From: a virus
Lineage: Duplodnaviria > Caudoviricetes
DNA: 64,000 nucleotides
Strand: one strand, 5' to 3'
IMG/VR virus record: IMGVR_UViG_3300008954_000001
Under the pieces are notes generated by a model. That model was not told the DNA's origin and did not search any database. It saw only the letters and a program-made list of their open reading frames with translations. Within the stretch, counting starts at the first letter, position 1. Each line of letters opens with the position of its first letter. Shown piece after piece: positions 13,950-62,941 of this stretch. Both the position numbers and the translations under genes were made by a program.

Positions 13950-16367
13950 TTAACAGCCCCAGCGTTTGATTTCAGCTTTGAGGGTTGCTTGAAGTTTCTT
14001 GTTCAGGTTGTCCCCGAAGACCAACAGTAAGACTTCTTCCATGCGGTTCGCAAAATGAAAAGTCATCTCATCTTTGATCTCCTGTGGGATCTCTTCCGTG
14101 TCCTTTTCATTCCATGCGGGCATAACGATTTCCTGAATCCCCGCCCTGTGTGCCGCCAAGACCTTTTCTTTGATTCCACCTACGGGAAGTACAGCACCAC
14201 GGAGCGTTGCCTCTCCCGTCATGGCAATGTCATGTCGCACAGGAATGTCTAAAAGCAAAGATAGAATGGCCGTCATCATGGTCACACCAGCACTCGGACC
14301 ATCTTTCGGCACCGCCCCACTGGGAACATGAACATGAAAATCTGTGTCGTTGAAGGATTCTTTTGTAACCTCAAGTTTCGGAGCTATGCTCCAAACCCAA
14401 CTGGTCGCCACCCCTACGGACTCTTTCATCACATCGCCTAAAGAACCAGATAGCTTCATGTTCCCCTTGCCGTGATGCTTGGTCGCTTCAATGAACAGGA
14501 TGTCCCCACCCGCTGCGGTCCACGCCAATCCACAAACAACACCGGGAACAGCCGTGCGCTGTTTGATTTCGTTGTGGTACTTCTCAGGCCCTCGGATCTC
14601 CCGCACCTTTTCGGGGGTGATAACCCAAGGTTCTCGATCTTCGGGTTCGAGGTCACCGTCCTTTCGACGCTCGGCTACGCCTCTGGCGATGCGGCGGCAA
14701 ATGGCAGCGATTTCTCGTTTTAGGGATCGAACACCCGCTTCTCGTGTGTAGTCCTCGATGATCTTTCGGATGGCATCGTCTCCGAACACAACAACTTCAT
14801 CATCAAGACCGTGCTCTTCAATATTCTGCGGGAGAGAAAAACCTCTGGCGATTTTGAGCTTGTCTTCGGGGGTGTAGCCCGGAATGTGGATTACCTCCAT
14901 ACGGTCATGCAAAGGACTGGGAATAGTATCCGCCCGATTTGCGGTAGCGATGAAAAGGATCTTGCTCAAATCGTATTCAACATCGAGATAATGATCGAGA
15001 AATTCGTTGTTCTGTTCAGGGTCGAGAACCTCAAGTAACGCCGAAGCGGGGTCGCCTCGATGATCGCTGACTAACTTATCGATCTCATCAAGAACGAGTA
15101 CGGGGTTGATTGTTCCCGCTTTCTTCATCCCCTTGATGATCCGACCGGGCATCGACCCAATGTATGTCTTGCGGTGACCTCGAATTTCAGCTTCGTCTCT
15201 CACCCCGCCAAGGGAAATGCGAGCCAACTCCCTACCTGTTGCACGAGCCACAGATTTCGCAAGAGAGGTTTTACCTACTCCTGGGGGGCCTACCAAACAA
15301 AGGATTGGTCCCTTCATGTCTTTTTTGAGCATCCGAACAGACAAGTATTCGAGGATGCGATCTTTGACCTTCTTTAGGCCGTAGTGGTCTTCGTCAAAAA
15401 TCTTCTGCGATTCTTCAATGTCGATTTCTTCCCCGGTTTCTTTTGCCCACGGGATCGACACCATCCAATCTAAATAGGTCTGTGAGACGGTGTACTCGGA
15501 ACTCTGCGGATTCATCTTAACCATGCGACGGAACTCTTTGAGACAGAGTTTCCTCACATCGTCGGGCATGTCCATCTCGGTCAGCTTCCGCTTCAACTCA
15601 TCGAATTCGTCCTCATCGTCTCCTTCAACACCAAGCGTATCCAGTTCTTTTCGGATTGCCTTTAGTTGCTCTCGGAGCATGTATTCTTTTTGTGTCTTGT
15701 CGATGCCTTCCCGAACAGTCTTTTCAATGCGGTTCATCATTTCGGCCCCCTCCAACTCTCGCTGGAGGGCTTCAATGACGTAATCCATTCGGGCTTCTTG
15801 ATTTAGGATCTCCAACACAACCTGCTTATCTTCCAGCTTGGTCAGCAGATTGTGAGCCAAGAGGTCAGATAGGGTTCCTGGGGAAACCACGCTTTCGATA
15901 ACGAAAAAGGCATCTTTCGGAATATCGGGTGTTCGAGAGATATACTGTTTTGCTAAGTGGTGGAGTGTGTTCACTTTAGGCATCACTGACTCTTTGTCAG
16001 CGAGTTCTTCTTGTACTACCGTACATTCGGCCCGAAGGATTCCATCAGTATCCAACCATTCCGTAACTCGGCAGCGGGCGATCCCTTGTAGGACAACGGC
16101 GATCTTATTCTTTTGAACGACACGAGTTACACGAACTATGGTGCCTACTTCATACAGGTCTTTGGGGGCAGGATCGTCTAAATCGGGATCACGTTGGGCA
16201 ATAACGGCCAGTAAGCCATTTCGTTTTGCTTCCTTGATCGCAGCGATAGACTTTTGCCTCCCCACATTGATCGGTGTGGAAAGGTTCGGATAAAGAACCG
16301 TATTTCGCACCGCCACGATGGGTAGCTCTAACACGTCTGGGAGCTTTACTTCGGAACCGTCACTCAT
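13950..16367 (-). CDS. lon: ATP-dependent Lon protease
   Basis: Lon N-domain, [22 protein letters not shown] catalytic Ser motif, GGIKEK. Confidence 0.97.
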
Positions 16368-16495
16368 TGTTACCTCTCAAATTGGGGGCAGTACCCACCT
16401 ACACTCTTGGCTTCTATAGATAGATTACTCATCCCCATTGGGGGCCAATATGACGGTGAGTACGGGGACTCCCCGTTGATTCGTCAATTCTACCC

Positions 16496-16816
16496 TCAAA
16501 AAAAGTCTTTGGCCGTGAGAGGGTGTTTAGAAGAGTCCAAAAAAACTTGCCCATTACGGGTCACGGAGAGAAAAGACCCATTGGAAAGTTCAAATTTCGT
16601 TTCAGTTGTAGAAATAAGTAACCATGCGTTAGCCAAATCCCGTTCCCGACACTTCGGGTCAATCTCCCCAACAAGCAACAAATCAAGATAACGAACCGCC
16701 GTGGCTATAGCAGAAATGCCCTCGGCAGTTGCTTTGTCTCCCTTACGGGTAGCACAAAGGCTGTCGAGGGCATCTTCTATGAGGGCTAAGGCTTCCTTCG
16801 GTCCTTGGTTATCCAT
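16496..16816 (-). CDS. Hypothetical protein
   Basis: 106 aa, in tandem with the upstream ORF. Confidence 0.5.
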   Translation of the reverse strand: MDNQGPKEALALIEDALDSLCATRKGDKATAEGISAIATAVRYLDLLLVGEIDPKCRERDLANAWLLISTTETKFELSNGSFLSVTRNGQVFLDSSKHPLTAKDFF

Positions 16817-16819
16817 GTC

Positions 16820-17104
16820 TTACCGATGCTCGTATCGAGGTGCGAGATCGACATCAATAACATCACCTTGCTCGTAGTTCAGGTTGCGAGGCGGCTGTTG
16901 TGGGTAACGGGGATACTGTGGGGGCTGAACATAAACAACATGCCGTTGTTCTTGTTGGGTCGCACGACCAAAAAGGCCCCGCAAAATAAGCGTAACTACA
17001 AAAGCTGCTTTCGCCCCTGCCCAAGCGCCACCGAGGATCACACAGAAACCGCCAATCCAAATCCATAAGGGTTCCATTCCTGCTATCATTTCTCTCTCCT
17101 TCAA
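16820..17104 (-). CDS. Small membrane protein with a Gln/Pro-rich tail
   Basis: Hydrophobic N-terminal half; directly downstream of a promoter motif. Confidence 0.55.
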   Translation of the reverse strand: MKEREMIAGMEPLWIWIGGFCVILGGAWAGAKAAFVVTLILRGLFGRATQQEQRHVVYVQPPQYPRYPQQPPRNLNYEQGDVIDVDLAPRYEHR

Positions 17105-17137
17105 AGATCCTGTAAGGGGCGTATCCCCTTACAATTA

Positions 17138-17168
17138 GACTACCGATAAGGAGACAGATCAGCCCCCC
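17138..17168 (-). promoter_or_regulatory. Bipartite promoter motif GGGGGGCT-N15-CGGTA
   Basis: Minus strand reads GGGGGGCT GATCTGTCTCCTTAT CGGTAGTC. Confidence 0.7.
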
Positions 17169-17170
17169 TT

Positions 17171-18757
17171 CTAAGTAGTCTGAATGATGGCGGTCTCGGC
17201 AGTAATAAGGGTGGAAGCAACTGAAATAGCTGCGGAAATGACGCATCGTGCCATCTTTGCGGAGTCCACAATGGGGGAGCCTTCCAGCAAGTTTCGCACT
17301 TCGCAGGTAACGGGATCGAAGCCTTCAAAGGACGGTATATCCGCATCCTTCGTATGGAGTTTAGCCACCTCTCCGTGGGTTCCTCCCGATTCGGCTAATT
17401 TCATAAAGGGCTGTCTTAGGGCATTGGCTACGATTTTCCAGCCGTGCCGCCCATTTGCTTCCGCCTCAAGGATATCTCCAAGAAGCAACAGGCCGTTGCC
17501 CGCTCCTGGAACAACCCCTTCTTCTAAAGCACCTCGGATAGCTCCAAGGGAGTCCTCAATCCGAGCACGGCGTTCTTTCATTACCGCTTCTGTAATCCCA
17601 CCCACTCGAAGGATGATCAAACCACCAGACAAGCCAGCGGCTTGTTCGTTTAGGCGGTCGGCATCGTAGTCAGAGGTGGAGGAAGATGCTTGCGCTTTGA
17701 TCTCACGGACCCGCTGAGAAATCGTCTCGGCGGCTTCGGGGAAAGACTCAAGCGTTGTAACCTTTTGAGTGACGAGTGCCTTATGAACACTCCCGAACCA
17801 TTCGGCATCAAAGCTACCCCGATGATCGAAACCTTGCTTGGGATCAATGAGCGTGGCTCCCGAAACCGCCGCTAAATTCTGGAGCCACTCCTCTTGCCAG
17901 CGGCCCGTGCCGGGAACTTTGACGGCACAAGAATGTACGATCCCTTTCTTATTGTTCACCACCATCGTTTGAAGGGCTTCCCCTTCAATGAAAGGGGCGA
18001 ACAGTAACAGATGATTATCGGGCCATTGACTGGCTTCCTCCAAGATCGCTTGAACATCAGCCACCGTTTGAAGCCCCGTGCTGACCACAGCCACCAAAGG
18101 AGCTTTAAGGTCTCGATCAACCCCATTGTTCGTGAAGTATTCGCTGGCCCAACCAGATGGCAGTTCCATGCCGTCCTTGGTTTCGATTTCAAGACCAAGG
18201 GTCACACCGTCTTCAACCGAAACTGTGCCTTCTGTGCCCGCCATCATGCAGGCTTTCGCCAACGCTTCCGCCACCTCTTGATCCCCGTTCGAGGCGATCA
18301 GGGCTACGCTTTCCACTAAATCTTGCGACTTGATTGGGATGGCTAACTCCGCAACCAAGGCTACAGCCATCTCGGAGGCTTCCTTCATCTCACGAGAAAG
18401 AGCCACGGGGTCGAAGCCCGCAATCGCAAGTTTCTGGCCTTCCCACAAGGCTTGGTAAGCCACAATCGCTGTCGTAGTTGTACCATCCCCCGCCATCTGC
18501 TCTACTTTCAGACAGGCTTCCTTAATCATAGCGGCACCAAGGCCCGTTAATCCTGGCCCTGGCTGGACTTCTCTGGATACAGTGACCCCATCGGAAGTCG
18601 CTTGAATATGGTTGAAGGCTTTATCCAAAAGGACGATTCCACCTTTAGGGCCAAAGGTACATCCGATGGCCTTAGCCGCAATTCCAGCACCGTTCAGGAT
18701 ACCCTTGCGAGCATTTGTCCCTGAAACGACTCGAATAGGCTTTTTGTCTTTGGCCAT
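17171..18757 (-). CDS. groEL: Divergent GroEL-like chaperonin
   Basis: TFGPKG, TSDGVTV, AGDGTTT and GVVPGAG motifs; no GGM tail. Confidence 0.9.
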   Translation of the reverse strand: MAKDKKPIRVVSGTNARKGILNGAGIAAKAIGCTFGPKGGIVLLDKAFNHIQATSDGVTVSREVQPGPGLTGLGAAMIKEACLKVEQMAGDGTTTTAIVAYQALWEGQKLAIAGFDPVALSREMKEASEMAVALVAELAIPIKSQDLVESVALIASNGDQEVAEALAKACMMAGTEGTVSVEDGVTLGLEIETKDGMELPSGWASEYFTNNGVDRDLKAPLVAVVSTGLQTVADVQAILEEASQWPDNHLLLFAPFIEGEALQTMVVNNKKGIVHSCAVKVPGTGRWQEEWLQNLAAVSGATLIDPKQGFDHRGSFDAEWFGSVHKALVTQKVTTLESFPEAAETISQRVREIKAQASSSTSDYDADRLNEQAAGLSGGLIILRVGGITEAVMKERRARIEDSLGAIRGALEEGVVPGAGNGLLLLGDILEAEANGRHGWKIVANALRQPFMKLAESGGTHGEVAKLHTKDADIPSFEGFDPVTCEVRNLLEGSPIVDSAKMARCVISAAISVASTLITAETAIIQTT

Positions 18758-21084: not shown

Positions 21085-21387
21085 ATGGCTCGCAGAGCAT
21101 CTACCCACGCTGTACTACAACGGCACATGAAGCGACGGGCGGACAATAGTCCCGGCCAGCATAGTTGGGGTCCGTTCGCTGAAGGCGACCGTGAAGCGGA
21201 TAAAGACGGGAACTACATGAGCGTCCAAAACATGAAGGACATTCATGCGATTTCTGGTCAACTTGTAGGGCGTATCCAACCCGGCACAGAGATGGAAGAT
21301 TGGGTTGAGGATAAGATCAGCGCAGCCCGACAGATCATGTCCGACCTCGAACGCTTTTACAACAAAGGCCGTGCGAGCAAGTCTTGA
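21085..21387 (+). CDS. Hypothetical protein with KRRA leader site
   Basis: Basic leader MARRAS...HMKRRA, then an EDWVEDKISAA domain; GGAG RBS. Confidence 0.6.
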   Translation: MARRASTHAVLQRHMKRRADNSPGQHSWGPFAEGDREADKDGNYMSVQNMKDIHAISGQLVGRIQPGTEMEDWVEDKISAARQIMSDLERFYNKGRASKS

Positions 21388-30157: not shown

Positions 30158-30631
30158 ATGGCTCGATATCGACCAACCTGTCCAAGATGTCGTAGTAGTT
30201 TATGGTACGAATCTTGTTCTTACGGCCACTCCCAAATCGGTTGCTCCTGTGGGTTTCGGATGATGGGAGATAAGTCTGTTCGTGGCTTCGTCACACAACA
30301 GAAAGCGGCTTGGCAACTTGAGCAGGTTGAAAAGACCAAGGCTCGTGTGGTCCTTGATCAGACTTCAAAGGTGAAGAAGGTTGAAACGAAAAGCGGGCCA
30401 ATGCTTGTACGGCAAAGTGAGCCTGCGGTGGCCGCCCCCACACCTACACCAACCCCCGCACAACAAAGGCGTGGGGCTACTACGCTTACGCAATGCGCTT
30501 GTTGTGAGAAGCCCCTATTCCGTCGCAAGAAAGAGGTGGATGGCGGGAACTCATTTTGTTCCTCGGCCCACCAACGAACGTGGCTTAAAACTTCTCTAAA
30601 TCCGACAGGTCGCTCTCGTCAGAGTGCTTAG
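30158..30631 (+). CDS. Zinc-finger hypothetical protein
   Basis: CPRC, CSC, CACC and FCSSAH motifs. Confidence 0.55.
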   Translation: MARYRPTCPRCRSSLWYESCSYGHSQIGCSCGFRMMGDKSVRGFVTQQKAAWQLEQVEKTKARVVLDQTSKVKKVETKSGPMLVRQSEPAVAAPTPTPTPAQQRRGATTLTQCACCEKPLFRRKKEVDGGNSFCSSAHQRTWLKTSLNPTGRSRQSA

Positions 30632-31076
30632 AGGAATCCTTTAGCCAAGACAGGTCAAGGGTCCATTTCTCTTGTGAGCGTTTAGCCCACAAGCGAAAGC
30701 AGTCGTCTACATAGGTCAAGGCTGTGTCTATGTTCCATTCGTTGACCTTCATCAAATGCTGAATGGCGACCATAGTGCGTCCCATGGCATCGGCTCGACC
30801 AATATGTTTAACCTCATGGCATGAAGGGCAAAGTGCGATCAGCCCTTCAAGGTGTTGGGTCTTGGTTGCTTCATCATATCGCCAGCGTTCGTGGCACTCT
30901 ACGGGCCACTTTGGACCTTTGCCCCCGCATATCTCGCAACGGTGGCCCGCCTTGGCGTATGCGGCTTTACGAAGCCTGTCCCATTCGGCTTTAGGAAGCT
31001 CTGAACGAAGGTTAGCCCCCCATTGACCTTTAGGGACAAGTTCAATCGTTAGTTTCATTCTGGCGCAGCCATTCAT
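30585..31076 (-). CDS. HNH endonuclease-like protein
   Basis: CEICG...VECHERW...LIALCPSCHEVKH. Confidence 0.8.
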   Translation of the reverse strand: MNGCARMKLTIELVPKGQWGANLRSELPKAEWDRLRKAAYAKAGHRCEICGGKGPKWPVECHERWRYDEATKTQHLEGLIALCPSCHEVKHIGRADAMGRTMVAIQHLMKVNEWNIDTALTYVDDCFRLWAKRSQEKWTLDLSWLKDSSKHSDESDLSDLEKF

Positions 31077-32103: not shown

Positions 32104-32445
32104 ATGGACACCCGCCAACAACTTATCGAAGGCCACTGTCAACTTGCAGAGATGACCAAAGCGATGTGCGACGATTGCCACTGTAGTCAGAGGCAAGAAC
32201 CTTATCGGTGTTGCCACGATTGGGCCTGCGAATTGACAATGGCCTTCGCTGAGTGGAGGTGGGGTGTTGAGCTTACTCCCACTGGACACCCATCACTCCC
32301 CCTCATGGGTCCAGAAGGATGCACCGCTCCACCCCACCTCCGCCCGGCGTGTTCGGGCCATATCTGTGAAGGGTTGGTTAGCGATGCTCCACTTGAGTAT
32401 TGGGAACTCAAGAGCAAGATGGCAAAACTGGAGACACAGCTTTGA
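32104..32445 (+). CDS. Cys-rich hypothetical protein
   Basis: CDDCHC, CC..WAC, GCTAPPHLRPACSGHIC. Confidence 0.55.
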   Translation: MDTRQQLIEGHCQLAEMTKAMCDDCHCSQRQEPYRCCHDWACELTMAFAEWRWGVELTPTGHPSLPLMGPEGCTAPPHLRPACSGHICEGLVSDAPLEYWELKSKMAKLETQL

Positions 32446-32690
32446 AAAAGGTAACACCCATTCAAATCGAAGCGTTGGTTGCACTCGATCCCGAACACCC
32501 TTCCTATGACCCCTCACACCGTCCTCGTGGCAGCTTAGAACGCCTTGCCAAGAAAGGGTTGGTCGGAGGAAATCGCAAGATAGGGTGGCACCTCACGCAC
32601 GAAGGTAAGGCTTACCTTCTAAGGCACGGGATCGTAGCCGGAACCCCCTTGAGGATTGCAACGCCTGATTCTGGCCCAACCCATCTGTGA
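32442..32690 (+). CDS. Small winged-helix-like protein
   Basis: TTG start overlapping the upstream TGA; [11 protein letters not shown]...[11 protein letters not shown]. Confidence 0.45.
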
Positions 32691-32858
32691 CCCTTTGATC
32701 GCTCCGTATTTAGCGATGGCTTGCTCTGCGTACTCTGAACAAGAGGGTTGGTAATGGCACCGTCGTCGGTAAGGTAAAGGTCTGTCGCCCAGATGAAGCC
32801 ACCTTTGGTTGGCTATCTGGTAGAGGCGGATTGAACGTAGAAGCAGCCGAGCGAGCAT
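32619..32858 (-). CDS. yidD: Membrane protein insertion efficiency factor YidD-like
   Basis: [23 protein letters not shown]...RIRRCNP...GYDPVP. Confidence 0.9.
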
Positions 32859-33080
32859 CTAAGACCCCTACATGCTCGCATGTATAAAAGGGGTACTGAC
32901 GGTACACGGCCAATAACTCCCTCTGAATGGAGGGAAGCATGAGCGTACTTGAAGGTATTGGCTTGACCGCTGACACGATTATCGTTGGGGTCGCAGTAGG
33001 TTGGTTGATCGGAAGGCTCCGTGCTTGGAGCAAAGGCTTCAGTGAAGCCATGCGCCAAGGGATGCGAGGATAACGACCAC

Positions 33081-51259: not shown

Positions 51260-51838
51260 CTAAAGCGGATCACCTGTGGCTGTGCTTATGTTCCACATGG
51301 CATCGCAGGTTCCTAAACGCCTTGTAACTAACGCCGTACAGGTTGGTGGGTAGGGAGTCCGTTCAAAGAACTCCTCACAGTTGTATCCAGTTTTGCATGA
51401 CCCACTGATCGGGATGTCCCTACACCGCTCGTTTACTTCCACGATATCTATAAAGGTCGGGTCGTACCCTCTTGGTGAAGGCCGATAGAGTGATCCCACT
51501 ACCTGCTCACCCGTGACATCACACTTGGAGTCTATGGAGAAAGGGTGGCCGAGGGGTCTCCCACCGAAAGCCTTTTTCCCACACAACTTGTACATATGCC
51601 GTTGGGCAGGGACATCAGGATGAACCTCCCCCTCAGGTATGGGAATCTTGATGGCTCGCCAGAACTGACGGGCAGGGCCACCAGCATACACTTTGACGCA
51701 CATGGGAAGATTGTCAGGTGGGCTGTCTGATACCGTACCTTCCCCTATGACTTCTACTGTCTTGGTGGGGGGGCATCCCATCATTAGGAAGGTTATGACC
51801 AGCGCAAAGGCCCCCATGAGCAATCCTGTGTGCTTCAT
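51260..51838 (-). CDS. Cys-rich putative lipoprotein
   Basis: Hydrophobic signal ending LMMGC. Confidence 0.55.
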   Translation of the reverse strand: MKHTGLLMGAFALVITFLMMGCPPTKTVEVIGEGTVSDSPPDNLPMCVKVYAGGPARQFWRAIKIPIPEGEVHPDVPAQRHMYKLCGKKAFGGRPLGHPFSIDSKCDVTGEQVVGSLYRPSPRGYDPTFIDIVEVNERCRDIPISGSCKTGYNCEEFFERTPYPPTCTALVTRRLGTCDAMWNISTATGDPL

Positions 51839-52380
51839 TTGTTGGTCCTCTCTGGCTCACACCAAAAGACCCTTTGTGGTCCAGACGGGTTTGGGGTCAA
51901 GGGATACATTTGGCAGAATCTCGATAGCTGCCCCAACTCGTTACAGAATACGGTGGCTGTCTTACGGCTGTCTTGGTAGCCCCATTTGAGCGTCCAAACA
52001 TGCCCGGACGGAGGCGTAGGGCAATAGTTGTCCATGCACCGTGCTTCTGACGGGTTCCATTCGTAGATCATGCGGCCATCTGGACACTCTTGCTTTGGTT
52101 CTGATGCAACAGCCTCATCTTGTTTTCCGGGCCGCACTTTCCTACCACCCTCACAGACGTGGCCGTCCAGTTGGGGTTCCCCGCCGCTTTCTCGGCATTC
52201 TTGCTCCAAACATTCGAGCCAGCCTTTTGCCCCTTCGATAAGACCCCGCTGCTGGCATCTTTCCCAATTGGTGTTCGCATCTACTTTAGGGGCTTCTGGT
52301 GTGTCATCAGGACACCCCATTAGGGCGAATAGACAAACAGCAAGTGCTATCCTTCGTAGGTTCATCCTTCGGCAAACCAT
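51835..52380 (-). CDS. Cys-rich putative lipoprotein
   Basis: MNLRRIALAVCLFALMGC signal/lipobox. Confidence 0.55.
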   Translation of the reverse strand: MVCRRMNLRRIALAVCLFALMGCPDDTPEAPKVDANTNWERCQQRGLIEGAKGWLECLEQECRESGGEPQLDGHVCEGGRKVRPGKQDEAVASEPKQECPDGRMIYEWNPSEARCMDNYCPTPPSGHVWTLKWGYQDSRKTATVFCNELGQLSRFCQMYPLTPNPSGPQRVFWCEPERTNK

Positions 52381-53255
52381 TGTACGAGGGTTTCCAAGTT
52401 CTTGCGGTCAAGGCCCGTGAGGGAGGTCTTTTCCAGATGCCAAGATCGTTTCACGTCCACTCTCCACACACCCGGCGTTCCTTTGGGGAGTGTTTCTACC
52501 CGCAAGTTGCGGCCTGTTTCCCAATAAGTGCTTTTCGGGAAAATGGGGTGGGTTGATTTCTCTATGGGTCGGCTACTGCCATCGTCTTCAGCACCTTCGC
52601 CGTGGACCGCAGGGTCGAGAGTAACATAAGGCAGTTCGTCAATGTCCCGTTTGATCGGAAGGTCACGAGTGTTCCTGAAGTCACCCCACTCAACAGCAAC
52701 ATAGATGACCCCTGTGATGATGCCACCCTTGATCTTGATGTGCAGGGAATCGCCACCACCCCAATCATTCCATACCCAAGGGGCACCAATGTATCGGTCT
52801 ACATCCTTTCTTGCGGCATCATAAAAAATGTCCAAAACATTCTCATCAGTTTCGTAATCCTCATGTTTGCGACCTTCGAGCAGGGCGTGAAGTATCTCAT
52901 CCGAGTATTGACTCAAACCACCCATCTTCTTGACGAAGGTGCTGAACTGAGGGCCTTTCAGAGCTTTGAAGGGAATGTCCTTGATCCTATCAGCAGGTAT
53001 TTCGGCCAAAAGGCTCGGTGTATCGAACAACAGCTTCAAGGACTCCTTTGGAGGAGCCTCGGCTAAGACTTTGCTCGGAGGGACAACCACAGACACAGTG
53101 GCCTCAACTACAATGCCCTCAGGGACCACCGTGTAGCCCCCGACCTTGGGTTCACCTACAAGGTTCCCTGATCTCAACCCCTCTTTAACAGCTTCCGCTA
53201 AAGGGCTGGCTACACGCTTGGAGAACCATACGGCTTGGAGTTGTCTTGGGTTCAT
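52362..53255 (-). CDS. Leader-B protein (MNPRQLQAVWFSKRVA)
   Basis: Start ATG 53255 overlaps the upstream TGA. Confidence 0.65.
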   Translation of the reverse strand: MNPRQLQAVWFSKRVASPLAEAVKEGLRSGNLVGEPKVGGYTVVPEGIVVEATVSVVVPPSKVLAEAPPKESLKLLFDTPSLLAEIPADRIKDIPFKALKGPQFSTFVKKMGGLSQYSDEILHALLEGRKHEDYETDENVLDIFYDAARKDVDRYIGAPWVWNDWGGGDSLHIKIKGGIITGVIYVAVEWGDFRNTRDLPIKRDIDELPYVTLDPAVHGEGAEDDGSSRPIEKSTHPIFPKSTYWETGRNLRVETLPKGTPGVWRVDVKRSWHLEKTSLTGLDRKNLETLVQWFAEG

Positions 53256-53629
53256 ACCAAACTCTCCCAAAGCCTGAGTAGCTTGCTACCCTCGGCCTTG
53301 ATGCGTGGCTTTGGTTTCCACTTGGGATCGTGAGTCACATCCCACCTCATTTCGCCCAAGTTTCCGAGTAACTTGTACATCTTGAACATCTCATTGACGA
53401 ACCCAAACCATGCCTCACTATCAACACGGGGAGCATCGTAGTAACGATCTGCCCAGTCATCAATCGTTTCTCTCAGAGCCAGCCAGTCATCTTCAAATCC
53501 GTCGTACAAAGGCGAAGTGCCCTCCGCTAACTGCTTGAGGAGTTTCTCCATTTTCTGATAGTTTACGGGAGGTGGAATTCGGGCGGTCTTACCGAACCAT
53601 GTAGTTTCGAGTTGTCTCGTGTTCATCAT
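53252..53629 (-). CDS. Leader-B protein (MNTRQLETTWFGKTA)
   Basis: Shared leader, operonic overlap. Confidence 0.65.
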   Translation of the reverse strand: MMNTRQLETTWFGKTARIPPPVNYQKMEKLLKQLAEGTSPLYDGFEDDWLALRETIDDWADRYYDAPRVDSEAWFGFVNEMFKMYKLLGNLGEMRWDVTHDPKWKPKPRIKAEGSKLLRLWESLV

Positions 53630-53955
53630 CTCACCACCATGTAAGCAATCGCTGCACCTACAATCAGAGCAGCAATATGGGTTACGACCGCATACAAGAA
53701 AGACATTGAAGCTGAAGGCTTGTCCTTTTCAGCCTCACTCTCGTCCTTTTCGTGATCCAAGAGGGCCGTGCGGTGCTTTTGTTCCAGCTTCGCCAATTGA
53801 AGGCCAAGTACCTTGATCTGTTTTTCTAAAGCCTCAATGCGCTCTTTGTAGTAGCTGGACTTATGAACACCGCAGTAACGATTCCCGTATTCGGGCTTGG
53901 CGGCATGGTCGCATTGTTCATGCTCACAGTCGTAGTGCTGGCAGGTGTCGCTCAT
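53626..53955 (-). CDS. Coiled-coil protein with a C-terminal TM helix
   Basis: Cys/His N-terminus, heptad repeats, hydrophobic tail. Confidence 0.55.
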   Translation of the reverse strand: MSDTCQHYDCEHEQCDHAAKPEYGNRYCGVHKSSYYKERIEALEKQIKVLGLQLAKLEQKHRTALLDHEKDESEAEKDKPSASMSFLYAVVTHIAALIVGAAIAYMVVR

Positions 53956-53956
53956 T

Positions 53957-54424
53957 TCATGCCTGCTTCCAGCCGTTTCGGGCTAACCAATCGATTAGGT
54001 CATCGGCGTAGGTTTCATCTTCGGCAGGGTTGAAGTTCCCCTTATCTCCCTCACCCCTTCGCAAAGGCATGATGTCTTGGACCTTCACACGAACGACCAG
54101 TTTGGCTCCGAAAACCCCGCCCTTAGAGGCCGTAATGCTCGGTTCCTTGAACTTCGCTTGTCCAATGGGCTTCATTGTGGGGGCGACCATCTTGGGCCAA
54201 AAGCTCCCAACCGTTCGATAGGCTTCTTCAAGCCCCATCTCAGCCATACCCCCATGGCTCTTGACGGTTAGGTCTGCCAAAAAAGTAAGGAAGAGGTCGC
54301 TTGAATTATCTCCCACAGAGATGTGGTTGATCCCAACCCGCTTGTTCGTCCAAGCGGGAGCAGCAGCCTTACTATGACCAGCTTGGTTCATAAACCATTG
54401 AGCTTGTAGTTGTCGGGTGTTCAC
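53957..54424 (-). CDS. Leader-B protein (MNTRQLQAQWFMNQAGHSKAA)
   Basis: Shared leader. Confidence 0.65.
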   Translation of the reverse strand: MNTRQLQAQWFMNQAGHSKAAAPAWTNKRVGINHISVGDNSSDLFLTFLADLTVKSHGGMAEMGLEEAYRTVGSFWPKMVAPTMKPIGQAKFKEPSITASKGGVFGAKLVVRVKVQDIMPLRRGEGDKGNFNPAEDETYADDLIDWLARNGWKQA

Positions 54425-54447
54425 AGGGGGCCTCCATCCGGGATCGT

Positions 54448-54687
54448 CTACTCTCCCCGTTCCATAGGCGAGTTACCGTTCTTAGTGAGATTCGCCAGCG
54501 TGAGGCCCATATGTTCGCCCCACCCTTCGCAGATTTCTGCGGTGCTTACCTCGATTTCATCGCCAGGTTCCCAACCCAACTCAGCCATCAATTCGAGGGA
54601 CAGCATAATGTACTGTTCCCCGTTCTCATCTTCTTCAACCTTAGCTGTGTGTACACACTCAGTCGGAACACAGAATGTCATCGTCAT
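54448..54687 (-). CDS. AbrB/MazE-like small DNA-binding protein
   Basis: KVEEDENGEQYIMLSLELMAELGWEPGDEI. Confidence 0.6.
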   Translation of the reverse strand: MTMTFCVPTECVHTAKVEEDENGEQYIMLSLELMAELGWEPGDEIEVSTAEICEGWGEHMGLTLANLTKNGNSPMERGE

Positions 54688-54955
54688 CTCCTTGCCACTC
54701 GTCGTTTGTTTGCTCTCTTCCGTTGGGGTTATTCTTTATTGTTAGTCCACCCTGCCATTTAGACTGAAAGTATCCATCAAAGGCTTCCCATAGGAGGTTT
54801 TTGAGGCTTTCAGAGGAGGGGGCATCATGTGTTTCGCTATCCTCGAAGACCAATTGGCGATCAGCGAGGTCATCGTCTTCATCAGGAAGGATCAATAACC
54901 ATCCGTTTTGGACTCTTTCGATAATCACAGTCATGGCGTGTCCTGTTCGTGGCAC
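54659..54955 (-). CDS. Hypothetical protein
   Basis: IERVQNGWLL pattern. Confidence 0.5.
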   Translation of the reverse strand: MPRTGHAMTVIIERVQNGWLLILPDEDDDLADRQLVFEDSETHDAPSSESLKNLLWEAFDGYFQSKWQGGLTIKNNPNGREQTNDEWQGDDDDILCSD

Positions 54956-55386
54956 GATTCACATAGCGTTTTTATCCACGCTGTATTGCGAGCTTTGCCA
55001 AGGTTCCCACAGCGTTCACAGGTGTGGTCGGACATGGCTTCAGCCATACGGACCATACCCTCGATGTAGTGGTCGCCGCCGTGGTAGTAGAAACGAAGCC
55101 CACCGAACTTCTCTTTGACCTGTGTGGCTTCTACTTGAGCGAGGGGAGCGTAGTTCTCGTCCTTCTCGTTGTACTTGCGGTTGTGCTCGTACTTACCCTC
55201 TGCGTTGTGCCAATCCAGATGGTGCTGGATGTTGGCGCATAGGGTATCAAGGATGGAGTACCAGCCATCTCCACACTCCATGCCCCAACACATAGCGGTT
55301 TGGGTCATGGGCAGATTGACTTGACGGAAGATTCTCGGATGCGCTTTCAGCAGCTTGGTTTCGAGTTCAGCTTTCATAGTTGCCAC
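54931..55386 (-). CDS. Conserved phage protein
   Basis: CGDGWY...QVKEKFGGLRFY...CERCG. Confidence 0.65.
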   Translation of the reverse strand: MATMKAELETKLLKAHPRIFRQVNLPMTQTAMCWGMECGDGWYSILDTLCANIQHHLDWHNAEGKYEHNRKYNEKDENYAPLAQVEATQVKEKFGGLRFYYHGGDHYIEGMVRMAEAMSDHTCERCGNLGKARNTAWIKTLCESCHEQDTP

Positions 55387-55581
55387 CTCCCTCAGTAGAG
55401 GGAGGATAGGCTAACTATCTCTACGCCTTTTAGTTACTCGTTTGCGTATCGGACGGAGGGTGGCACGACGGAGTGAGTGTGCGATTTGGTCAATAGAATC
55501 AAGGAAGATTTTGCCGATGGCTTGGATGAGGACAACGGAGATGATCAGTACAGCTATGAGGACTTCAAGGCCACCCACCTA

Positions 55582-55902
55582 CTACCTCTCGCTCCACCCG
55601 TATCGGCTCGGATCGCTTGGGTTGCGGGGAATTTTCTTTACCACCCCGTCATCAAACTCCATGTCGTGATCTTCATAATCTTGGAACCAAACCCTCTTGC
55701 GAAACATCCCCCGTGCAAACTCTTCCATCGACTTTCTATCGGGAAATGGCCCGTAGTAGTCGATCAGGCGGTCGTAGTCGTAGCCCGTTTCTTCGCCATG
55801 TACCAAATAGTATTCATTGGGCCGACCCTTCCAACCCTTGGCATATTCGTTATTGCTTGCGGTCTTACCAAACCATGCTGCTTGTAGTTGCTTTGCGTTC
55901 AT
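55582..55902 (-). CDS. Leader-B protein (MNAKQLQAAWFGKTA)
   Basis: Shared leader, starts 1 nt after the upstream stop. Confidence 0.65.
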   Translation of the reverse strand: MNAKQLQAAWFGKTASNNEYAKGWKGRPNEYYLVHGEETGYDYDRLIDYYGPFPDRKSMEEFARGMFRKRVWFQDYEDHDMEFDDGVVKKIPRNPSDPSRYGWSER

Positions 55903-57851: not shown

Positions 57852-58109
57852 TTAATCTACGATCCGCCGCCCAGACCTTGTGGGCTGACGCTTTTTGTCT
57901 GTTTTGGGGACTCTCCGTAATGCTTCCATCATCGTGTATTCAGCTACACCAATGAGATCATAGCGGTCATCTTGTGGGAGGTCGGGTAGGAGGCCATGCC
58001 GAAACGCATGGGCGGAGGCTTTGAATAGATAACACCCTAATCCAAAAGCGTATTTTAGGTGCTGCCAGTAGGACTCACCAACGGATGCTGGATGGGTCCA
58101 CAGCGGCAT
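57852..58109 (-). CDS. DUF6356-like small protein
   Basis: HPASVGESYWQHL...HGLLP; ATG 58109 overlaps the upstream TAA. Confidence 0.55.
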   Translation of the reverse strand: MPLWTHPASVGESYWQHLKYAFGLGCYLFKASAHAFRHGLLPDLPQDDRYDLIGVAEYTMMEALRRVPKTDKKRQPTRSGRRIVD

Positions 58110-58870
58110 TACGAACTGGCCCACCCGTAGAACATCCAGCCAAGGGACTTGCCTAAGACAACTTGGTAGCGAGTTCCTACTACTTGCCAAGTCGGGAGTC
58201 GGGTAGCTTCACTGAGCTTTTCCACATATCCCAGCCTCTTTACTTGATAAATTGGAGATTTGGTCCCTACTCCCCATCGGGTATCGGCAAGGAGAGCCTT
58301 TGCTAATAGCAGGGCTTCTTTACGAGTGGGTGCTTTATCCGACCCGTGTAACGACCCAACAAGAAAGTAAGACACATCTTCTTTGATGAATCCTGTTTTG
58401 GGAACGCCACCCTCTCGGATCTTCTCGCTTTTCCGACTATCAATATCGACTTGGACGGTAGCCCCTTGGCGACTACGGCCTTTCGCAGCGATAGCTTCTT
58501 TCCCCTTTGCCTGTGCTTCGTTCCAACTTCGAGCTTGGACTTTGACTGCATATTCCTTTTTTCCGACCACTTTGGACTCAGCAATTTGGATAGCGAAGGC
58601 TGGCCCCCACTTATCGTTATTGTCCATATCCTTATCAATGAAATCGTTGGCTTGCGCTCGTGTCATTAGGGTTCGGCTTCGGATCTTGAAGCCGTCCTTT
58701 TCAGCGATTGTTCCCGTGTATCCTCGGTTGCCGTTTTCATACCGAGCTTCTTCTACACATTCGGCAAAAGCCCGGTGTGGGTCAGTTTGGCGAGAACCGT
58801 CCACAAAGGTTGTGCCACCAGCGGTCTTTTTCATCAGGTGTCGTGAGGCGACTCGTTGTGCCAAACTCAT
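58109..58870 (-). CDS. Leader protein (MSLAQRVASRHLMKKTA|G)
   Basis: Basic leader, then a GYTGTIAEK domain. Confidence 0.65.
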   Translation of the reverse strand: MSLAQRVASRHLMKKTAGGTTFVDGSRQTDPHRAFAECVEEARYENGNRGYTGTIAEKDGFKIRSRTLMTRAQANDFIDKDMDNNDKWGPAFAIQIAESKVVGKKEYAVKVQARSWNEAQAKGKEAIAAKGRSRQGATVQVDIDSRKSEKIREGGVPKTGFIKEDVSYFLVGSLHGSDKAPTRKEALLLAKALLADTRWGVGTKSPIYQVKRLGYVEKLSEATRLPTWQVVGTRYQVVLGKSLGWMFYGWASS

Positions 58871-60632: not shown

Positions 60633-61295
60633 TTATCGAGCCTTACTTCGACAGTTGCAGCGTTCCACAACATGCCTCACGCTGGCGGAACGCCCGCCGG
60701 GGCTGTAGATGCCCCGTTCTCTGGCCCATGTTTTTAGTTCTGCCTCGAACATCTTGAACTGAGGGCCATGATTCATATGCCGTAGGTGAGCAAGTTCGTG
60801 GATCATGGTGGACATGATGGCACTGTATTTACGGAGCTTCATGGGGTTCCGCTTTTGGCGGACGTTCAGGGCGATAATCCTTCGCCCTCGATTAAACCCC
60901 AATGATCCCTCGGCCACCGATTCCTTCAGTGTCTGAAAGGACAGCTTGAACTCTCGAAGGATGGGCTGAACGTCTCGTTGGGCTTTCGCCAAGATCGCCG
61001 CAACCTCTTCCTTACCTTCCAAGTCGTACACGGAATAGCCATCTTCAACTGTTCTGCGCCACTCTTTCTTGGTTTGGACCCGTTCGGCTTTCTGACCCAA
61101 CTTCTTTTTGGCCCACTTGACCCACTTAGGTAGGTACTTGGTGCGAACGTGGCTGCCTTCGGGAGCATCTAAACCCCACTTGATAAGGAGCTTGTTGCCT
61201 CGAATGGATGCGTTGGAACGCCGATTGTCGGTAGAGACTTGTGTGACCTTCAGGCCATCGATCTCGGAATCTACATAAGGACCAATAGCTGCCAT
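60633..61295 (-). CDS. WLM/SprT-like zinc metalloprotease
   Basis: GFNRG...STMIHELAHLRHMNHGPQF (HExxH plus a third His); ATG 61295 overlaps the upstream TGA. Confidence 0.7.
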   Translation of the reverse strand: MAAIGPYVDSEIDGLKVTQVSTDNRRSNASIRGNKLLIKWGLDAPEGSHVRTKYLPKWVKWAKKKLGQKAERVQTKKEWRRTVEDGYSVYDLEGKEEVAAILAKAQRDVQPILREFKLSFQTLKESVAEGSLGFNRGRRIIALNVRQKRNPMKLRKYSAIMSTMIHELAHLRHMNHGPQFKMFEAELKTWARERGIYSPGGRSASVRHVVERCNCRSKAR

Positions 61296-62941
61296 CAGGA
61301 GCCTCCCAATCGAACAACATCTTCTTGCCAAGCCTTGATCTCTGGGATCGCCTCACGCACTGATTTCTGCAAACCACTCATCGTTCGAGGCTTGAGTTCC
61401 CATTTGCTCATGACTTGAAAATCATGCTTCATCTCTCGAACGGAAACGATGTGGTGTACCCGTGCCGAAGGGCCGGGGACCGATTGAGGGGAGAACTGAC
61501 GAGAGGCTACATAAACAACTAAAGAGTCCTCTTCCGTACCTTGCCACTTCCATGACTTGAGTCCAGGCACACGAGAAGCTGCTTTGGTATCAAACTTGAA
61601 CCCTAATCGCTTGAGGTCTCGGTCGAAGCTCTCAACGATCTTGCGATACTCAGCCATCTCATCCTGTGTTTCAGGGTCTTCGGGCTGATAACCCTTCGAC
61701 CAATCAAGAGAGGCCAATAAGGGCAGCAGATGGGGTCGTAGCTCTGGATTACTGTTGGCCAAGTAAATGGTTTCAGCACGGAGGCGAGAGGCTTGTTTGA
61801 ATTCGTTGACGATAGGATTGGATTCTGGATTCAACCAAGTCTTAGTGAGGTTTTTCCATTTCTTATAGGAGTCCATCATGGTTTTGACTGCCCCATCATC
61901 CTTCCTTTTTTGTTTCTTTTTGAAATGTTCGTCGTACTTATCCATCTTATTTTTGATTTTCTCTGCGGAGTAGCCTTTACCTTCAAGGGACTTTTCATAG
62001 TCTGCACGATGGTCTGCCTGTTCTTGCTTTTGCCTCTCTTGGGTAGACATGCTTTCCGTTTTCTTATCTTTGTCGTACTTGGCCATCTCTTTCTCAAGCC
62101 CACGACCAATGGCTGCTTTGTCATCCCCGTGCTCTTCTTGGAGCTTTTTGAGAGCAGCGTCTTCGTGTTTCTTGCGGGCTTCGGCATCTTGCTTCTTATG
62201 GCCCGAAGTCAGTTCTTCACGATCTTGCTTCGCCTTGTCCTCTTTGTCCCGTTTCTCTTGCTGGTCGTAGTTCCGCATAGCTTCGGAATACTCGGCATCC
62301 ATTTCGGCTTTGGATTCTTCGGATAAGTTGCCTTCCTCGTCTCTTTCACTGTCGTACTTCTTGTTCAACGAAGTAACTGTAGCCTTACCGTGCTGCTCAC
62401 GGGTTTTCTTTTTGGCTTGGCCCACTTCAGTCTTTTTGGGATGGTAATCTTCCCCACCTTGACCCGATCCTGGTTGAGGCTTTGCCTTTTCTGCGTCGGC
62501 TTCCTCTTGCTTTGCAGCGTCCTCTTGAGGCTTTGCGTTGGGGTCTAAGAAGTCCTTTTCGGTTTTGGTTGTGTCCGGGTGGTCAGCCTTGTACTTCTCG
62601 AACATCTTCTTGGCCGCTTCGGGCGTAGCTCCGAGATCATTACGGCTCTTGGACTTGGGTTTCGAGTCCCCTTCGGCCTTGGGCTTATCCTCTTTCTTGG
62701 TGTCTCCCTTGGGTTTGTCCCCCCAAGGCCCCTTGATAACTTTCCCGCTATCGCTGTCTCCCCCACCGCTCGGAGGCTTTGCACCACCACCCGTGTCAGG
62801 AGAAGGGGCAGGTTTAGACGCTGGCTCTTGTTTGAGAGCGGGGGCCGCACTGCCTCGACCTTCCTTCAACAAAGGGAGCAACAGAGGTCTGAGTTCTGGT
62901 TTGGCGTGGGCCAACCGAATTAGGTGGTTTCGTAGGTTCAT
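61295..62941 (-). CDS. Highly charged leader-A protein with two leader copies
   Basis: MNLRNHLIRLAHAKPELRPLLLPLLK; internal LRAETIYLANSNPELRPHLLPLL. Confidence 0.7.
   Translation of the reverse strand: MNLRNHLIRLAHAKPELRPLLLPLLKEGRGSAAPALKQEPASKPAPSPDTGGGAKPPSGGGDSDSGKVIKGPWGDKPKGDTKKEDKPKAEGDSKPKSKSRNDLGATPEAAKKMFEKYKADHPDTTKTEKDFLDPNAKPQEDAAKQEEADAEKAKPQPGSGQGGEDYHPKKTEVGQAKKKTREQHGKATVTSLNKKYDSERDEEGNLSEESKAEMDAEYSEAMRNYDQQEKRDKEDKAKQDREELTSGHKKQDAEARKKHEDAALKKLQEEHGDDKAAIGRGLEKEMAKYDKDKKTESMSTQERQKQEQADHRADYEKSLEGKGYSAEKIKNKMDKYDEHFKKKQKRKDDGAVKTMMDSYKKWKNLTKTWLNPESNPIVNEFKQASRLRAETIYLANSNPELRPHLLPLLASLDWSKGYQPEDPETQDEMAEYRKIVESFDRDLKRLGFKFDTKAASRVPGLKSWKWQGTEEDSLVVYVASRQFSPQSVPGPSARVHHIVSVREMKHDFQVMSKWELKPRTMSGLQKSVREAIPEIKAWQEDVVRLGGS

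Follow-up and report, generated by a model that had tools for sequence, protein, structure and literature searches.

A short N-terminal leader on unrelated neighbouring proteins of an uncultured marine phage: a possible capsid-targeting propeptide

Background

The capsid-targeting sequence (CTS) of phage T4 is a 10–19-residue N-terminal propeptide, sufficient for packaging, that gp21 removes; among the diverse internal proteins of the T-even phages the CTS alone is conserved (PMC9026906, PMC3012670). As far as these two reviews relate the work of Mullaney and Black (1996), the T4 CTS is carried by IPI, IPII, IPIII and Alt, and the polymorphic internal-protein loci of T-even phages are known here through their citation of Repoila et al. 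(1994). In phage P1, the N-terminal 30 residues of DarB, an anti-restriction cargo protein, target a reporter to the capsid (PMC9024508). The giant phages SPN3US and phiKZ have propeptides that their prohead proteases cut, and some head or ejection proteins of a giant phage carry N-terminal propeptides of 20–24 residues, removed at a three-residue motif (PMC10052503). Here we describe leader B, a short N-terminal peptide on four neighbouring genes of IMG/VR virus record IMGVR_UViG_3300008954_000001 (Duplodnaviria; Caudoviricetes), an uncultured marine phage of ~323 kb. The whole stretch analysed, 64,000 nucleotides, is called the window. A literature search found no published description of prohead cleavage at Lys/Arg-x-Ala, the junction at which most copies of this leader end, or of the leaders treated here.

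Results and discussion

Leader B stands at the start of four neighbouring genes

Leader B is a 15-residue N-terminal peptide shared by four minus-strand genes, with the consensus M-N-x-[R/K]-Q-L-[Q/E]-x-x-W-F, followed by G-K-T-A in most copies. In a six-frame scan of the 64 kb, the motif MNx[RK]QL[QE]xxWF was found at exactly four gene starts (53255, 53626, 54424 and 55902) and nowhere else. The back-translated motif gave 4 matches, all at starts of open reading frames (ORFs), against 0.00 expected from 100 dinucleotide-preserving shuffles of the window, confirming the preliminary description of this DNA, in which the leader had been placed on four gene starts. Three of the start positions given there were retained (53255, 55902 and 54424, the last with a GTG start). 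The second gene probably begins at 53626 rather than 53629, because two ATGs are present and every other copy starts with M-N. The genes are named below by their starts, and their parts are as follows:

55858–55902, minus strand: leader B, codons 1–15 of gene 55582–55902 (106 aa); ends K-T-A before Ser
55582–55857, minus strand: body of gene 55902, acidic, 91 aa, no known family
54380–54424, minus strand: leader B, codons 1–15 of gene 53957–54424 (155 aa, GTG start); ends N-Q-A
53582–53626, minus strand: leader B, codons 1–15 of gene 53252–53626 (124 aa); ends K-T-A before Arg
53208–53255, minus strand: leader B, codons 1–16 of gene 52362–53255 (297 aa); ends R-V-A before Ser
52362–53207, minus strand: body of gene 53255, whose alpha/beta family carries five or more leader types in other phages

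Gene 55902 starts 1 nt after the stop codon of a gene encoding a 566-aa protein. For gene 53255 there is a possible upstream TTG start, but its orthologs P0003, P0021 and P0026 begin with M-N-P/S-R-Q.

Asn2, Gln5, Leu6, Trp10 and Phe11 showed no change across the copies. Among the four window copies, leader DNA was 62–76% identical, and identity over the next 90 nt was 19–34%, which is the chance level. The copies were also compared in 15 pairs, formed from the four window copies and one each from the metagenome loci L002 and L004 (see below). The differences fell at 96 third, 59 first and 42 second codon positions, and 51 codon differences were synonymous. Because the window copies differ at many synonymous sites, leader B is under selection as a peptide. 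This extent of DNA divergence, together with the many synonymous changes, rules out recent cassette copying within the window genome; a check for recent cassette shuffling, proposed earlier, showed none there when leader and body DNA were compared. The window copies are therefore old.

The bodies behind leader B are unrelated

No similarity was found among the four bodies by BLASTP, single-sequence hhalign probabilities were all ≤2%, and neither Pfam nor PHROGs gave a family for any of the four proteins. AlphaFold models were obtained for two of them. The body of gene 53626 was predicted to be a four-helix bundle (mean pLDDT 71.8, pTM 0.65), and that of gene 53255 a mixed alpha/beta fold (alignment A5 with 13 homologs; pLDDT 83.2, pTM 0.75). 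Residues 1–15 of the former and 1–14 of the latter had pLDDT <50. Foldseek returned no significant match for the modelled bodies among solved or viral structures, and the ESM Atlas gave no usable match; the best VIA match of the gene 53255 model was cystatin-like (Z 5.2), which is weak and below the level of trust. Because the BLASTP and hhalign comparisons were negative and the two predicted folds differ, the four bodies are evidently not paralogs, and leader B is unstructured and lies outside the fold in both models. The earlier statement that the bodies lack evident similarity is thus borne out, and the check on body homology proposed with it revealed no shared family.

One body family carries several leaders

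Public protein libraries contain 21 full-length homologs of the gene 53255 body, all aligning from one common point. Among these 21 members, four carry leader B, eight carry leader D (core L-R-x-I-L-[A/S]-x-E-G-x-R-x-A), and four carry a leader resembling leader A, which is known from the window and from other huge phages (core on this family L-I-R-L-A-S). Two (P0009 and P0014) have an RVAxR-aromatic tag, [R/K]-V-A-x-R-[Y/H], two (P0017 and P0031) have a bare M-R-K-R-A, and one has another leader. A [KR]-x-A tripeptide stands immediately before the body in all 21.

In a maximum-likelihood tree of the bodies, the members with leader B formed a single clade (support 97/98) surrounded by relatives that bear leader D. 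P0027, with leader D, and P0029, with an A-like leader, were sisters (100/99), having bodies that are 84% identical and leaders that are unrelated. The tree calls for no fewer than five or six changes of leader. What is new here is this multi-leader exchange on one cargo family, which is demonstrated at the level of sequence. It upholds the earlier idea that the leaders are interchangeable, since one body family carries at least five types in different phages.

Leader D was not seen in the window. It may be a shortened A-like leader, the tail of which it resembles. It is listed at P0020–P0030, at L085:8759–9607 (minus strand), where it lies back to back with a divergent A-like-leader gene, and in L086.

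The protein P0003, from a 152.5-kb JGI contig, is a mosaic relative to gene 53255: 119 of the first 120 residues are identical, and identity is ~54% beyond them. The recombination point is inside the body, near residue 120.

Cargo differs behind leader B at one orthologous slot

The metagenome locus L002 contains an ortholog of the C-terminus of the 566-aa gene (77% identical over the C-terminal 92 aa), followed right after its stop codon by a leader-B gene, the same arrangement as in the window. Nucleotide identity between the two is 83% from the upstream gene through its stop codon to the leader, dropping away at ~codon 16. The bodies at this slot are unrelated, the proteins having 123 aa in L002 and 106 aa in the window. 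This break in identity therefore indicates one slot with differing cargo and a constant leader, and the replaced body supports the claim in the preliminary description that cargo is exchanged behind the leader.

The next ORF after the leader-B gene of L002 (846–1565, plus strand) has an HExxH motif and shows no significant similarity to a WLM-type metallopeptidase encoded in the window (E 0.06).

Leader B is found in few other phage sequences

The leader-B pattern had 0 matches in IMG/VR, and a relaxed pattern gave one chance match. In ~700 kb of leader-A loci there was neither a leader-B-like motif nor any leader-B body. Among GenBank phages, there was no match to the window region, to a 1264-aa protein or to P0017. 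Searches for related loci with the 566-aa protein, a 548-aa protein, alignment A6 and P0017 also found nothing.

In JGI metagenomes, leader B was sought with a leader profile and a pattern scan, the scan giving 8 matches, of which 2 were real. Orthologs of two window leader-B genes were recovered (P0002 and P0003), P0002 being the sole homolog of gene 54424 and 94% identical to it. Additionally, four further bodies were found behind leader B (P0006, P0007, L002:478 and L004:2615). A 306-aa protein from ENA (P0040) has a P0006-type body, then an internal leader B (M-N-S-R-Q-L-Q-A-T-W-F) and a ninth, unrelated body; it may be a genuine fusion or polyprotein that contains an internal leader, or else a stop codon has been lost. 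Altogether, nine bodies unrelated by BLASTP and hhalign occur with leader B, four in the window and five from metagenomes (the four further bodies and the second half of P0040). Leader B, absent from IMG/VR and GenBank phages, is thus real but restricted to a narrow lineage.

In L004, from a more distant relative, the leader-B gene (L004:2615–2932, plus strand) lies beside homologs of window genes 30158–31076 and 32439–33073. Therefore, leader-B genes sit in different genome contexts in different phages.

Dissimilar leaders end at one junction

Leader A was found in 75 stretches in IMG/VR huge-phage contigs. In 60 of its 76 unique copies, a [K/R]-x-A tripeptide ends 10–13 residues past the PELR motif, 56 of those at residue 10 or 11. 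A 63-kb fragment of a relative (G006) carries four A-like leaders and one D leader; PF05065, a capsid protein model, had no match in this fragment. Because [KR]-x-A occurs in leader types A, B, D and RVAxR, dissimilar leaders converge on one junction.

That several short leaders converge on one xxA processing site had been proposed before. Convergence on [KR]-x-A holds for every member of the gene 53255 family, for 9 of 12 leader-B copies and for the leader-A copies just counted. It fails for N-Q-A in gene 54424 and P0002, for K-T-S in P0041, and for the internal copy in P0040, which has no such tripeptide.

Other features of the window

The genes between and around those with leader B are as follows:

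53626–55578, minus strand: span of interspersed genes without leader B, which also holds the leader-B gene 53957–54424
53626–53955, minus strand: leaderless gene with a C-terminal transmembrane helix
54448–54687, minus strand: leaderless gene, phrog_661
54659–54955, minus strand: leaderless gene
54931–55386, minus strand: leaderless gene
55411–55578, minus strand: leaderless gene with a transmembrane segment
55904–57604, minus strand: 566-aa protein directly upstream of gene 55902, with an N-terminal leader A and a second, internal copy, K-x-A after each
58109–58870, minus strand: 253-aa protein whose leader is the [RK]VAx[RK]-aromatic tag, ending K-T-A before Gly
21085–21387, plus strand: 100-aa protein; its basic leader is looser and ends R-R-A before Asp
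60633–61331, minus strand: WLM/SprT-like zinc metallopeptidase amid tagged genes (PF08325, E 1.4e-14)

The interspersed leaderless genes reported before are present, five of them between 53626 and 55578. A third, basic type of leader had also been recognised at 58870 and 21085; the former stands as the [RK]VAx[RK]-aromatic tag, the type also borne by P0009 and P0014, and the latter is merely a looser variant.

The C-terminal domain of the 566-aa protein (residues 452–566) has a weak, sub-threshold match to PF13296, a Vgr-associated family of the type VI secretion system (E 0.002). Two Cys-rich predicted lipoproteins at 51260–51838 and 51835–52380 (minus strand), with the lipoboxes L-M-G-C and M-M-G-C, are the last genes of the minus-strand run that holds leader B and lie immediately downstream of the genes carrying it; neither had a family match. 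At 13950–18757 (minus strand), the phage encodes a Lon protease of full length (Lon_C, E 1.7e-80), with a GroEL-type chaperonin close by. The window as a whole is an accessory-gene region, with genes for Lon, GroEL, SurE, methylases, amidase, SNF2, SET, patatin, MazG and MoxR/VWA.

The WLM/SprT-like protein may be the leader peptidase. It is one candidate, since for Vibrio phage XM1 a Spartan-like enzyme has been put forward in the role of prohead protease (PMC10457771).

Leader B as a possible capsid-targeting propeptide

We propose that leader B is a T4-CTS-like capsid-targeting propeptide, one of several interchangeable leaders in a clade of huge marine phages, and we give this proposal an even chance of being right. 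The leader would have two parts, an 11-residue recognition segment and a short flexible link mostly ending in Lys/Arg-x-Ala. It would dock small, fast-evolving cargo to the prohead core, a maturation protease would cut after the Ala, and the freed cargo would ride in the head and enter the host with the DNA. Because they are constant, the leader and the junction may also act as recombination handles for the exchange of bodies. The modularity and the shared junction are strongly supported by the comparisons above, and docking to the prohead, cleavage, the identity of the protease and delivery to the host are what we infer beyond them.

More tentatively, the leaders might form a combinatorial address code, a possibility that we would not yet rely on. 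Leader classes A, B, D and RVAxR would each dock at a distinct site or time of head assembly, one Ala-specific protease would cut all of them at [KR]-x-A, and the leaders would serve as recombination handles, so that cargo and leader could be freely reshuffled.

Several results weigh against leader B being a cleaved capsid-targeting propeptide. There are no structural genes in the 64-kb window, and the Pfam protease models S78, S77, ClpP and S49 had no match in five leader-A relatives, where the gene 53255 body family found none either, although the S77 model (PF03420) also had no match in any control genome. The exceptional endings of leader B (N-Q-A, K-T-S and none) depart from the proposed cut site. 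P0017 and P0031 keep only M-R-K-R-A, so the tripeptide might serve as something other than a cut site. Moreover, an amphipathic helix is ruled out for leader B, its hydrophobic moment lying below that of most shuffles.

Two known kinds of processed N-terminal extension were also rejected, by reading the leader sequences themselves. A Sec or Tat signal has a hydrophobic core of ~7–15 residues after a basic N-region (with a twin Arg in Tat), then Ala-x-Ala. Leader B has no apolar run longer than 3–4 residues (A-V-W-F in gene 53255 and A-A-W-F in gene 55902) and lacks a twin Arg. The cysteine protease Prp recognises Leu-Asn-Leu-Gln-Phe/His-Phe and cuts before Ala, its substrates being ribosomal protein L27 and the capsid and scaffold proteins of staphylococcal phage 80alpha. 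The spacing in Gln-Leu-Gln-x-x-Trp-Phe differs from this, and other leaders on the same body lack the aromatic pair, sharing only [KR]-x-A.

The best surviving alternative, which we consider rather unlikely, is that the leaders address another partner, as a degron for timed turnover by the phage's Lon or as a tag for its GroEL or a membrane or export factor, any cut at the junction then being made by a non-head protease, for example the WLM/SprT-like metallopeptidase. Lon and GroEL are both encoded in the window, aromatic-rich peptides are known Lon tags, and the region is not a structural module. The metallopeptidase gene lies amid tagged genes, and the leader-B gene of L002 is followed by the HExxH ORF. 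T4 gp23 reportedly has an N-terminus that targets proteins to GroEL, as far as its citation in PMC10052503 goes. However, a degron or chaperone tag needs no [KR]-x-A, yet that junction is common to five dissimilar leader types, and the WLM gene fits a capsid role equally well, given the protease proposed for XM1.

It is improbable, in our judgement, that leader B docks permanently and stays on the protein, with [KR]-x-A acting as a hinge or contact motif. Cleavage at the tripeptide is itself deduced, some leader-B copies lack K-x-A, P0017 and P0031 retain R-K-R-A without any longer leader, and the P1 DarB packaging signal was shown by targeting alone and not by cleavage (PMC9024508). In the model of gene 53255, however, the tripeptide lies in a low-confidence linker and not in the fold. 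It keeps its place whichever of the unrelated leaders precedes it and whichever of the unrelated bodies follows, and the internal leader-A copies are bracketed by such sites, a pattern that is typical of propeptide junctions.

That the four proteins are ordinary diverged paralogs keeping only the N-terminus is very improbable. They are tandem neighbours on one strand, as paralogs might be, but the negative BLASTP and hhalign results, the lengths of 106 to 297 aa and the differing folds of the two models speak against it. One body family carries other leaders elsewhere, and in L002 homology ends abruptly at the end of the leader. Weakest of all, and hardly credible, is a conserved element acting in the nucleic acid as a translation-start or regulatory sequence, for although the motif is always at a start codon, the differences pile up at third positions (96 versus 59 and 42), 51 codon pairs are synonymous, and Leu6, Trp10 and Phe11 are invariant.

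If leader B and its counterparts are capsid-targeting propeptides, leader type and [KR]-x-A together would flag the head-borne, injected proteins of uncultured huge phages. The proteins so flagged would likely be anti-defence or host-takeover factors that are otherwise unrecognisable. Capsid-targeting tags would prove to be modular and interchangeable, unlike those of T4 with its single CTS type. Moreover, a new cut-site code would be gained, along with short tags whose ability to load phage heads with foreign proteins could be tried.

Comparison with known systems

The maturation sites of the herpesvirus protease assemblin, whose fold is shared with phage prohead proteases, have the consensus Val/Leu-x-Ala and are cut before Ser. 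By analogy, the junction described here would resemble them in its small P1 Ala and small next residue and would differ in its basic P3. In SPN3US, the cut is at Ala-x-Glu, after Glu, the propeptides form no shared leader family, and cleavage was shown by mass spectrometry (PMC10052503). P1 DarB offers the precedent of an N-terminal peptide sufficient to bring a foreign protein into the capsid; unlike the leaders here, it is a single signal, carried by just one very large protein, and not a leader family on many bodies.

The slot shared by L002 and gene 55902 recalls the internal-protein loci of T-even phages, with differing cargo at one place and a conserved leader. In the T-even loci, promoter and repeat DNA flanks and marks the junctions, whereas here only the upstream gene and the 45-nt leader are conserved, and one such slot was seen.

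The closest likeness is to the T4 CTS itself. In both, a short N-terminal peptide (15–16 residues here) is found on otherwise unrelated small proteins and ends at a conserved tripeptide junction, and the cargo genes differ between related phages while the tag remains constant. The two peptides have no sequence similarity, and the junction is Lys/Arg-x-Ala rather than Leu/Ile-x-Glu: the ending of a T4 gp21 site is absent from leader B, whose K-T-A, R-V-A or R-T-A has no Glu at that position. Unlike the T4 CTS, at least five leader types occur on one cargo family, the genes lie far from head genes, and packaging and cleavage are predicted from sequence.

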